Below, one piece after another: positions 10,040-48,663 of a DNA stretch of 64,000 nt. The notes under the pieces were generated by a model that saw only the letters and a program-made list of their open reading frames with translations, searched no databases and was not told the origin of the DNA. The DNA comes from Haliotis cracherodii. Lineage: Eukaryota. The DNA lies in the NCBI RefSeq assembly GCF_022045235.1, contig NW_027266264.1:48918001-48982000 (forward strand), read 5' to 3'. Every line of letters starts with the position of its first letter. The stretch's first letter is position 1. Made by a program: the position numbers and the translations under genes.

Positions 10040-10095
10040 ATAAAGTTTATCTACCAGGACTGAAATCATCACACTCCAGTATGATATTCCTATTA

Positions 10096-10342
10096 GTTGG
10101 TTGGTTGGTTTGTTGATTTACGCCTCACTCAGCAATATTCCAGGTATATGACGGCGGTCTGTAAATAATCGAGTCTGGACCAGACAATCCAGTGATTAAT
10201 ATCATGAGCATCGATCCACGCAATTGGGATCGATGACATGCATCAACCAAGTCAGTGAGCCTGACCACCCGATCCTGTTAGTCGCCTTTTACGACAAGCA
10301 TGGGTTGCTGAAGACCTATTCTACCCCGGAATCTTCACGGGG
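10096..10342 (-). mobile_element. SINE family B (no tRNA head), single-core variant
   Basis: Reverse complement of 14469-14727 with a (CAAC)n tail. Degenerate TSD TATTCCTATTA/TATTTCTGTTA. Confidence 0.9.
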
Positions 10343-10890
10343 CTATTTCTGTTATTACTGAGCTTATATGTACCTTATTCAATGCCTTGCCTACGGGTTT
10401 CTCTGAAAGGGCATGTAAGGCCACATCATTCAAAGTATTTTGTTGATTTTAAGCTTTGGATTAACTTTCTGACTATCACCAGCAGCTAGGAGATGGTGTA
10501 AATCCTGCTGAGATAGCTGAGATACCCTAAGTCTCCATGGTCCATAGTATGGGGCCTGACATTGGTTGCTGGTGGTCTTCAGCACAATGTATCATTGTCT
10601 AATAGTGTGATATTTTTAGTTTTCTCCACCCAGTCGTGAGTATTCTGTGATAAAGTACTAGTGATTGTGATATAGTACTAGTGATAGTGATATAGTACTA
10701 GTGATTGTACTGTTCTTTAGCAATTTTGTTTTTAAATAATATCAATGTAGACTAGATCTAGATCAAGCCACAATATAGCTGAAAATTCTTTTGCTGATGT
10801 GACAGATTTTTTTTTCACTCACTCTTTCCTACAGAATACAATTTCATGTAGAAAATATTTGATGTGCCTCCTAACCATATTTCCATATTC

Positions 10891-13689: not shown

Positions 13690-14468
13690 GATGTCACAGG
13701 GAACAAGACTAACCTAAATGCTACTTTAATGGTCTTTTGGGCCCATATTTAGTATCTTTGAGGTCTTTAAGCACACAATGTAGTACATTATTTGGCTAGA
13801 ACAGTGAAACTTAGAAAAATATTTTTGGAATTTTTTTAGTAAAAAAATGTTGGAAGTTAAATGAGATTTGGGTTTGTCAGGAACATGGTGGCATGGTTCA
13901 GAAGTTTTTAGTACGTTGGAAATATTTTCTTGGTGAACTACAGAAGATCTTAATGATTTTCACATTTTACAAGAAGCTGAACAATGAGTGTTGGTATTTA
14001 GAATAACCATATGTTTATCTCATTAAAAATCCAAATAAGAAACCCAAAACAAAGTTTCCCAAGTGATAACCTTGTAGTGGACTTTTTAAGGCCATTAAGT
14101 TTGTGTCAGAGTTTTGACATAAGGTTTTGTCTAGAATTTTGATAAAACATGACATGTGACATGCATGGGAAATTAAACACCAGCAATGATGTTTAATATC
14201 TGTCACTTGTCAGGGTCCTGCACTCAGCATGAACCAGGCTACTGTTTCAACTGGAACCCACTTCTCACCTAGCTGTACAGCCAGTGGTCTCATTCTCACA
14301 GTGGAAGTCGCAGCTTTCATGACTTTCTCAAGGATGATAAACATGCAGAGGAAGAGTTTGTGATCCTTGCCCCCAAATGACATTTGTTTGAAGAACACAA
14401 ATCTGCGTGAGATTAAATTTCAGTGCATTAGTAGTACAAGCATTGATGATCCTTTTACATACAGAAAT

Positions 14469-14727
14469 GACCCATGAAGATTCCGGGGTAGAATAGGTCT
14501 TCAGCAACCCATGGTTGCCTAAAAGGCAACTATGCTTGTTGTAAAAGGTGACTAACGGGATCGGGTGGTCAGACTTGGTTAATGCATGTCATCGTATCCC
14601 AATTATGCGGATTGATGCTCATAATGTCAATCACCGGATTGTCTGGTCCAGACTCTATTATTTACAGAGTGCCGTCGTATAGCTGGAATATTGCTGAGTG
14701 CGGCGTTAAACAACAAACAAACAAACA
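14469..14727 (+). mobile_element. SINE family B, duplicated-core variant, 12-13-bp TSD
   Basis: ACATACAGAAAT(G) at 14457 and 14728, with a (CAAA)n tail. Confidence 0.92.
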
Positions 14728-14990
14728 ACATACAGAAATGTTTGATACAGAATTGTTAAAAGATTTCCGCCGAATATCGTGTAGTGATGGTAGTCCGTCT
14801 CGCTGTCCCTGAACGATATTATTTTCCCTTCTGAGCCCTGACTTATTTATTTCTGTCAAAATTAAATTTTTTCAGAGACTAAGCATTAGTCTAAAGTGAT
14901 GGTAGCAGACTGGAAAACAACAACACATTAACTCTAGCACGACTTTTGTAAAAATTTGAATAGATACAAATTCCATTTGAGTATAGACTT

Positions 14991-16216: not shown

Positions 16217-16475
16217 GACCCATGAAGATCCAGGGTAGAATAGGTCTTCAACCCATACTTGCCGTAAAAGGTGACTATGCTTGTCATAAGAGGCCACTAA
16301 CAGGATCGGGTGGTCAGGCTCGCTTACTTGGTTGATGCATGTCATCGTATCCCAATTGTGGGGATCACTGGATTGTTTGGTCCAGACTCGATTATTTAGA
16401 GTTTGCCGTCATGTAGCTGGAATATTGCTGAGTGCAGCATTAAACAATTGTTAACCAACAAACAAACAAAACGAA
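16217..16475 (+). mobile_element. SINE family B, duplicated-core variant
   Basis: Same sequence family, flanked by AACTGCTCT (16204-16212 and 16476-16484). Confidence 0.9.
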
Positions 16476-19663: not shown

Positions 19664-19871
19664 AACCAGTGAAGATCCGGGGTAGAATAGGTCTTCTGCA
19701 ACCCATACTTTCCGTAAAAGGCAACTATGCTTGTCATAAGAGGCGACTAACGGGATTGAGTGGTCAGGCTCGCTGACTTGGTTGATGATGCATGTCATCG
19801 ATTCCCAACTGCTTTGATCGATGCTCATGATGTCAGTCCCTGGAGTGCAGCATTAGACAACAAAAAAACAA
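19664..19871 (+). mobile_element. SINE family B, internally deleted, 12-bp TSD
   Basis: ACTTGTTGATGT at 19652-19663 and 19872-19883. Confidence 0.9.
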
Positions 19872-22556: not shown

Positions 22557-22800
22557 GTCTTCAGCAACCCATGCTTGCCGTAAAAGGCGACTATGCTTGT
22601 TGTAAGAGGTGACTAACAGGATCGGGTGGTCAGTCTCGCTGACTTGGTTGACGCATGTCATCGATCCCAATTGCGTGAATCGATGCTCATGATGTCAATC
22701 ACTGGATTGTCTGGTCCAGACTTGATTATTTACAGACTGCCGTCATGTAGCTGGAATATTGCTGAGTGCGGCGTTAAACAACAAACAAACCAAACCACCT
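22557..22800 (+). mobile_element. SINE family B, 5'-truncated, at the edge of a minisatellite
   Basis: Family B sequence flanked by the 29-bp direct repeat ACCTGGGTGATCTGTTCATTGTCTGAGGC. Confidence 0.92.
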
Positions 22801-27084: not shown

Positions 27085-27150
27085 ACCTGTGAAGATCCAG
27101 AGTAGAATAAGTCTTCAGCGACTATGCTTCTTGTAAGAGGCGACTAACTA
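27085..27150 (+). mobile_element. SINE family B 5' fragment
   Basis: ACCTGTGAAGATCCAGAGTAGAATAAGTCTTCAG...GTAAGAGGCGACTAAC. Confidence 0.8.
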
Positions 27151-37605: not shown

Positions 37606-37831
37606 TGGTTTGTTGGTTGGTTGTTTTACGCCGCACTCAGTAATAGTTCAGCTATATGTCTGAAATAATCAAGTCTGGACCAGACAATCCAGAGACTGAT
37701 ATTATGAGCATCGATCCACGAAACTGGGATCGATGACATGCTTCATCAAAGTCAGTGAGTCTGACCACCCGATCCCGTTAGTGGCCTTATACAGCAAGTA
37801 TGGTTGCTGAAGACCTATTCCACCCCGGATC
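37606..37831 (-). mobile_element. SINE family B, single-core variant, 12-bp TSD
   Basis: TCAGTGATTAGT at 37594-37605 and 37832-37843. Confidence 0.9.
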
Positions 37832-48494: not shown

Positions 48495-48633
48495 TTGTTC
48501 TTTTTTTTATTGTTTATCGCCACACTCAGCAATATTTCAGCTTTTTGACAGTGGTCTGTTATTAATTGAGTCTTCACCAGACAATTCAGTGATTGACTTC
48601 ATGAGCATTGATCTACGCAATTAGGATACAATA
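48495..48633 (-). mobile_element. SINE family B 3' half, degraded
   Basis: CACTCAGCAATATTTCAGCT...CCAGACAATTCAGTGATTGAC. Confidence 0.8.
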
Positions 48634-48663
48634 ACCAGTATCTGCCCTTGGCGCTGGTGTAAC

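Follow-up and report, generated by a model that had tools for sequence, protein, structure and literature searches.

A covarying RNA fold at the 5′ end of a Haliotis cracherodii SINE and its counterparts in viruses

LP (LINE-promoter) SINEs have been described in abalone, oysters, periwinkle and scallops, and their head of about 70 bp is common to the 5′ ends of Nimb-17_LMi, I-3_DR and RTE-9_CPB (PMC4758252). That study read the head as a promoter, with the L1Tc promoter/ribozyme as analogy, and in its available text it left open the role of the head and which LINE, none being identified as partner, moves LP-SINEs. Judged by its head, size, TSDs and core, the Haliotis cracherodii SINE analysed here fits this kind, which is already known. 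It shares with Hdi_LP (255 bp) and Hmi_LP, Lsa_2 and Sgl_LP a tRNA-less, LINE-derived head of about 70 bp, a length of about 255 bp, TSDs and a terminal tandem repeat (PMC4758252); its head aligns to the 5′ UTR of a LINE copy of the same genome (L364) and has a core as in published heads, with the same core and architecture recognisable by eye in the scallop ‘Nimb-17 homology’ heads (Fig. S2 of PMC4758252). The 5′ 9-mer of the SINE is absent from the supplement text of that study. A preliminary description of the locus had likened the core to the Nin/Deu-type domain; this likeness was not upheld, as the Lottia Nin and Lsa_Nin sequences in the supplement of PMC4758252 lack the motif by eye, and here the motif is the head itself. 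Where PMC4758252 proposed a promoter and, in its available text, neither an RNA fold nor viruses, we find a covarying fold, viral homologues and a candidate partner LINE that carries a putative ribozyme together with the motif, none of which we found in Rfam 15 or the open-licence literature searched. In that literature the core sequence had no match and no paper gave this head a fold or function; the supplements of PMC10690425 returned 0 matches to the motif, three files excepted, which might list it.

Structured RNA ends of other kinds provide further points of comparison. Tandem xrRNAs in viral 3′ UTRs require a pseudoknot (PMC8374639), a noncoding sgRNA has its 5′ end at the first nucleotide of P1 (PMC6299227), and coremin-type xrRNAs consist of a short pseudoknot and a required second hairpin; Xrn1 is not stalled by H-type pseudoknots of the ordinary frameshift kind (PMC10321173). 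By 2021 xrRNAs had been characterised only in viruses, with cellular ones predicted (PMC8374639). For non-LTR elements, 5′ degradation has been suggested to limit use of the R2 template (PMC11331408), so that protection of the 5′ end would matter to such RNAs, and the R2 protein binds a 5′ pseudoknot (PMC12222951).

The window, by which we mean the whole 64-kb stretch of DNA analysed, contains eight copies of one SINE of about 255 bp. Copies and the parts of the 14469 copy are as follows, with the basis of assignment in brackets.

14469..14727, + strand: SINE copy, full-length, LP-type, with a 22-nt hairpin duplication (sequence comparison)
10090..10343, − strand: SINE copy, full-length, without the hairpin duplication, about 254 bp
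16217..16470, + strand: SINE copy, full-length; its 9-bp TSD stops 4 nt before +1
19664..19871, + strand: SINE copy, head intact, internal deletion, 12-bp TSD (19652-19663/19872-19883)
22557..22800, + strand: SINE copy, 5′-truncated, adjoining a tandem array
27085..27148, + strand: SINE copy, head only
37606..37831, − strand: SINE copy without the first ~11 nt, 12-bp TSD
48495..48635, − strand: SINE copy, 3′ half only
14457..14469, + strand: left TSD, 13 bp, its last G doubling as element +1 (sequence)
14470..14474, + strand: pseudoknot stem P1, 5′ strand, with one CpG-type change in the 14469 copy (permutation and alignment tests)
14475..14482, + strand: pseudoknot stem P2, 5′ strand (permutation and alignment tests)
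14484..14488, + strand: pseudoknot stem P1, 3′ strand, the G-run (permutation and alignment tests)
14489..14495, + strand: A-rich loop L3 with conserved AGAAT(A/T) (alignment)
14496..14503, + strand: pseudoknot stem P2, 3′ strand (permutation and alignment tests)
14507..14511, + strand: stem P3, 5′ strand, partner 14556-14559, weak in this SINE family (permutation test)
14516..14532, + strand: hairpin core, first copy, duplicated and decayed (sequence comparison)
14539..14555, + strand: conserved core, a 4-bp hairpin with a 7-nt loop, then CTAA (core search and alignment)
14671..14727, + strand: 3′ tail ending (CAAA)n, resembling the tails of I-group LINE copies L363-L366 and of a tRNA-headed SINE (alignment)
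14728..14740, + strand: right TSD of the 14469 copy (sequence)

The preliminary description had pointed to a common start of five copies, and this was borne out: the shared 5′ 13-mer has five matches in the window at up to 2 mismatches against 0.69 expected, with 0 of 100 shuffles doing as well, and the core motif has eight against 0.36 expected. TSDs delimit the copies at 14469, 19664, 16217 and 37831, confirming from sequence the boundaries claimed for the first two. We found no tRNA gene in the window, no A box in the head of the five SINE copies tested and no Rfam match to the window at gathering score, in keeping with the description of the SINE as headless. Many SINE copies contain the hairpin core twice (window 14512-14555 in the copy listed), and some loci elsewhere (L426, L146) hold tandem arrays of it.

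The head of about 70 nt is a covarying RNA fold, made up of an H-type pseudoknot and a conserved hairpin. Its strands follow the order P1a, P2a, P1b, A-rich loop and P2b, which is that of a classic H-type pseudoknot, placed at the extreme 5′ end so that the G-run in the loop pairs with the 5′-terminal CCCG; downstream lies P3, enclosing GC(N)TG, the 4-bp hairpin and CTAA. The exact 17-nt core pattern was found in 9 viral, at least 122 metagenome and 25 prokaryote-assembly stretches, and most of the metagenome matches listed have AGAAT(A/T) upstream of the core even though it was not part of the search pattern. The 214 motif instances among the matches listed fell into 51 clusters, from which we picked by eye 24 distinct, intact-looking families. 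When own stem partners were compared with swapped ones across these 24 hand-picked families, all three stems were supported, at 0 (P2), 79 (P3) and 931 (P1, the stem with the weakest support) of 100,000 permutations, while the cognate strand was the best partner in only 10 (P2), 3 (P3) and 5 (P1) of the 24. When 12 non-viral families were aligned with MAFFT, 86.6% of cells were paired and 17 were double changes, against 5.9 in shuffles, a count that 0 of 500 shuffles attained. The 17-nt core is nearly invariant, with a terminal hairpin that does not vary at all, and hence shows no covariation, an invariance partly forced by the search pattern. Within the SINE family itself, 27 copies varied too little for compensation in P2 to be seen.

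Several pairings had been put forward from the window sequence, with a covariation analysis and an Rfam search as checks. The TGAAGA/TCTTCA stem is real, being the P2-type pairing supported at 0 of 100,000 permutations, and so is the GTCG/CGAC hairpin, which is the conserved core. A 5′ pseudoknot was correctly anticipated as part of a conserved structure, but in a different register, since pairing of the loop G-run with the downstream ACCC scored 97,144 of 100,000 permutations; pairing of the 5′ ACCCG with a distant CGGGT likewise lacked cross-family support (58,314 of 100,000). Against Rfam, neither the 10090..10343 (−) copy, searched to E 10, nor seven viral loci, searched to E 5, matched any family, including hammerhead, twister, pistol and hatchet ribozymes and the described xrRNA classes as far as Rfam holds them.

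Loop L3 spans 3 to 143 nt in 55 instances, and by eye these elements still appear to start at P1. Host-associated metagenome repeats, among them L187, L226, L235, L237, L243 and L253, keep the pseudoknot ends around L3 inserts of 57-143 nt. The 25 core loci in prokaryote assemblies are mostly chance matches, and those with the fold look, from their sequence, like animal contigs that were likely included in the assemblies. Contigs of this sort with the motif, likely host DNA, are L304, L309, L310, L311, L312, L319, L320 and L321, with LINE ORF1-like frames 3′ of the motif in L310 and L320.

The genome holds 27,728 exact occurrences of the 5′ 13-mer and 5 of the reversed control. We sampled 60 evenly spaced 10-kb pieces (600 kb), which held 132 SINE copies, or 127 after five at locus edges were dropped; a further 51 tail-only matches, mostly from other families, were set aside. 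Extrapolation from the density of this sample suggests some 250,000 SINE copies per genome. Plotting the 5′ ends, a check that had been proposed at the outset, placed the start at model positions 2-7 in 67 of the 127 copies, with a minor group at positions 22-34, near the 3′ side of the pseudoknot (9/127), and no peak at the internal CTAA (3/127 at positions 84-91). Among 71 full-length copies, a pool that includes 30 best-match loci, +1 is G in 60 and the preceding base is mixed; 48 have a TSD, and in 40 of these 48 no more than 2 bases separate it from CCCG. The start stays 1-2 bases ahead of P1 though its letter differs among families, being mostly purine in four of the five families examined. 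The precise 5′ end that the preliminary description set against random truncation is therefore real, but a shared start alone marks only the normal full-length end of a SINE, because most copies of a tRNA-headed SINE that has this tail too begin at a single position (by eye about 33 of 38, in the same 600-kb samples). This tRNA-headed SINE and one further family (L031-L090) have the same 3′ tail, ending in (CACT)n. Small-RNA runs (n = 3) gave very few reads on the element, only 54 and 14.

An ORF 3′ of the motif in L310 led to a LINE family of this genome that also carries the motif (L324-L375), an I-group family with endonuclease, RT and RNase H domains in ORF2 and 815 exact ribozyme starts genome-wide, many copies being clustered at C2:20.8-21.7 Mb. 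At 26 of 30 LINE loci the motif lies directly behind a 57-nt HDV-like fold; one locus has half the fold, one a damaged motif and two have neither. These first 57 nt fit the full HDV descriptor with the match at G1, giving HDV topology with G+1 at the 5′ junction of the element; TSDs adjoin this first G in L363-L366, and RF02682 scores 27.5-29 bits (E 0.07-0.16) at six of six loci, below its gathering score of 44. The 5′ end of the LINE thus appears to be set by a predicted minimal HDV-like ribozyme. The motif behind it carries variant letters; ORF1 begins about 570 nt further on, and the RNA is predicted to lack a cap. In six of 542 LINE copies of the motif, the T that the ribozyme would place three bases upstream is missing, and of these six only L355 has its start at the motif; the count of such starts is therefore 1 of 542, or one or two if a chance T is allowed for, which argues against cleavage or RT stalling there. 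In the LINE context, RT does not stop at the 5′ edge of the motif, nor is the RNA cleaved there efficiently.

The tail of L363-L366 aligns with the SINE tail at a score of 55, where the best of 500 shuffles reached 45, which makes this LINE a candidate partner for the SINE. LINE subfamilies differ in their 3′ UTR, and a SINE-like tail right after ORF2 was seen only in L363-L366. An I-type LINE retrieved by RNase H search (L091-L149) was rejected as partner, since its tail differs and its 5′ end lacks the motif. A young I-type LINE family (L130-L149) has an inverted fragment of the 3′ part of the SINE in its 5′ UTR, within the first ~250 nt of the element. We looked in this genome for other LINE families that begin at the motif and retrieved only SINE copies, older relatives and one satellite. 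The ribozyme end had 0 exact matches ahead of the SINE among its copies. J1/2-P2 of the LINE ribozyme shares 9 of 11 letters with the first bases of the SINE (CTCGTGAAGAG vs CCCGTGAAGAT), probably by chance, since the same stem occurs in the viral contig L123.

Seven of the nine viral core loci have the whole architecture, six of them distinct, as L122 and L127 share one; the remaining two belong to a Mu-like transposase region and lack the stems. Two further viral scans added only L392, and a relaxed pattern gave no further true instance among 30 loci. Pfam identified RdRp or capsid domains in five small contigs (L122, L124, L126, L128 and L392), and none in L121, which also had no PDB match. 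All six small viral contigs carry the motif in sense orientation, with 5-123 nt separating it from the last stop codon and 90-184 nt from the end of the contig, and in two of them (L121 and L392), as in the repeat L213, it is in tandem; in L123, a 212-kb AT-rich contig of a large DNA virus, it lies between two ORFs. A model trained on 12 non-viral sequences scored the seven viral instances at 37-73 bits and loci with the core but without the stems at no more than 31 bits, with L306 (35), L192 and L251 (31) borderline. By their sequences, the carriers appear to be unrelated RNA viruses and one large DNA virus. Because the stems covary and the motif occurs in RNA viruses, its function must lie in the RNA.

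Our best reading, to which we assign a probability of about 45%, is that the head, a fold that also occurs in viral 3′ UTRs, acts as an xrRNA-like exonuclease block by which the 5′ end of the SINE RNA is set and shielded. SINE copies would be transcribed by read-through from host transcription, the 5′-to-3′ exonucleases Xrn1 and Xrn2 would digest the leader and halt at the pseudoknot, and the reverse transcriptase of a LINE would then copy the trimmed RNA from the shared tail. Ribozyme cleavage leaves a 5′-OH end, which Xrn1 does not attack. Cleavage in the LINE would hence yield an Xrn1-proof end, and LINE copies may keep their ribozyme because that end would escape Xrn1. We favour the exonuclease block because the motif would set a 5′ end without cutting and follows viral stop codons, singly or in tandem, and the start at a fixed 1-2 bases ahead of P1 despite the variation of L3 from 3 to 143 nt counts in its favour. 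The pseudoknot involves the 5′ end itself, and in viruses it has a 3′-UTR or intergenic position, in tandem in two of the six small contigs. It resembles coremin-type xrRNA-C/WCC (PMC10321173), xrRNA-D (PMC6299227) and the tandem xrRNAs of PMC8374639 in having a pseudoknot at the 5′ edge, a downstream hairpin, a 3′-UTR site after the stop, tandem copies and a 5′ end at P1. Unlike those viral xrRNAs it has no sequence or Rfam match to them, its stems are longer, its second domain is conserved and its home is a retroelement, and its resistance is a prediction. Several observations count against the exonuclease block: plain frameshift pseudoknots are not Xrn1-resistant, Rfam returned no xrRNA match, the 24 families were picked by eye from 51 clusters and the cognate strand came first in no more than 10 (P2), 3 (P3) and 5 (P1) of them, L121 matched nothing in Pfam or PDB, the mostly purine +1 is as expected of a polymerase start, and a near-invariant core without covariation suggests catalysis or protein contact more than a mechanical block. 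We hold it possible, with more reserve than the block itself, that the motif is a new xrRNA class common to RNA viruses and animal retrotransposons, one that gives promoter-less SINEs and LINEs a precise, protected 5′ end from read-through. If so, it would add a third route to a 5′ end to those by internal promoter and by ribozyme, and an animal genome would hold about a quarter of a million copies of an xrRNA.

That an internal promoter starts transcription at the 5′ end, as in the LP hypothesis (PMC4758252), with the fold serving cap-independent translation, binding of ribosomes or initiation factors (3′-CITE-like in viruses) or stabilisation, strikes us as rather unlikely, although the purine at +1 in four of five families fits it. 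L1Tc Pr77, both a promoter and a structured RNA (PMC3383444), provides a precedent, the near-invariant core would suit a protein-binding site, and the LINE motif, about 570 nt upstream of ORF1 on a presumably uncapped RNA, is where a translation element could act. However, the head has no A box, and RNA viruses, for which a DNA promoter would have no meaning, conserve the same letters just as strongly. These letters also shift relative to +1 by as much as 140 nt, and the LINE of this genome apparently relies on a ribozyme to form its 5′ end. We regard as improbable that the motif is instead a new self-cleaving ribozyme, of HDV- or hatchet-like geometry, cutting 1-2 bases ahead of P1. An exact end whose distance from the fold is constant and a near-invariant core within covarying stems would be expected of one, and ribozymes occupy this place in other non-LTR elements and apparently in the LINE as well, whose motif, with its variant letters, might be inactive. 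HDV-like ribozymes at non-LTR 5′ ends (L1Tc Pr77, R2; PMC11331408) are likewise structured 5′ modules that define or protect an RNA end, but unlike them the SINE head lacks HDV topology and has no ribozyme in front, whereas the first 57 nt of the LINE fit such a fold. A nested double-pseudoknot descriptor for HDV-like ribozymes had 0 matches in five SINE copies and one antisense strand, even though it is permissive, since it matched loosely five times in the viral contig L124; no CUGANGA-GAAA hammerhead core was found, and mapping the motif by eye onto the HDV, twister, pistol and hammerhead cores gave no fit. The statement that no canonical ribozyme could be fitted therefore stands, and the absence of Rfam ribozyme matches agrees with it. 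Self-cleavage at the head, as first suggested, is weakened further by the LINE, in which 26 of 30 loci keep the HDV-like fold in front of the motif and copies start at the ribozyme, with a single start at the motif among 542; cleavage would also cut off the last 90-184 nt of the viral RNAs, and 5′ ends show no peak at the internal CTAA.

Very improbable, in our view, is an end made at integration, either by RT stopping at the fold or by a LINE protein that binds the fold and finishes second-strand cleavage. The strong structure at the extreme 5′ end and the nine of 127 SINE copies starting near the 3′ side of the pseudoknot are what such a process might leave, but the main peak (67/127) lies on the far, 5′ side of the knot, and the viral occurrences are left unexplained. 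LINE copies extend past the motif as far as the start of the ribozyme, and the earlier suggestion of RT stalling at the structure is accordingly not supported. Under any of these alternatives, the motif is a structured RNA that we found neither in Rfam 15 nor in the literature searched. A 70-nt covarying motif found in viruses and in retroelements of several animal groups makes the questions of the LP head and of cellular xrRNAs testable in vitro.

The window is also rich in tandem repeats, with more than 10 minisatellite arrays at 18260-53344, some of them over 1.5 kb, and the SINE copy at 22557 is flanked by copies of the 35-bp unit of its neighbouring array.
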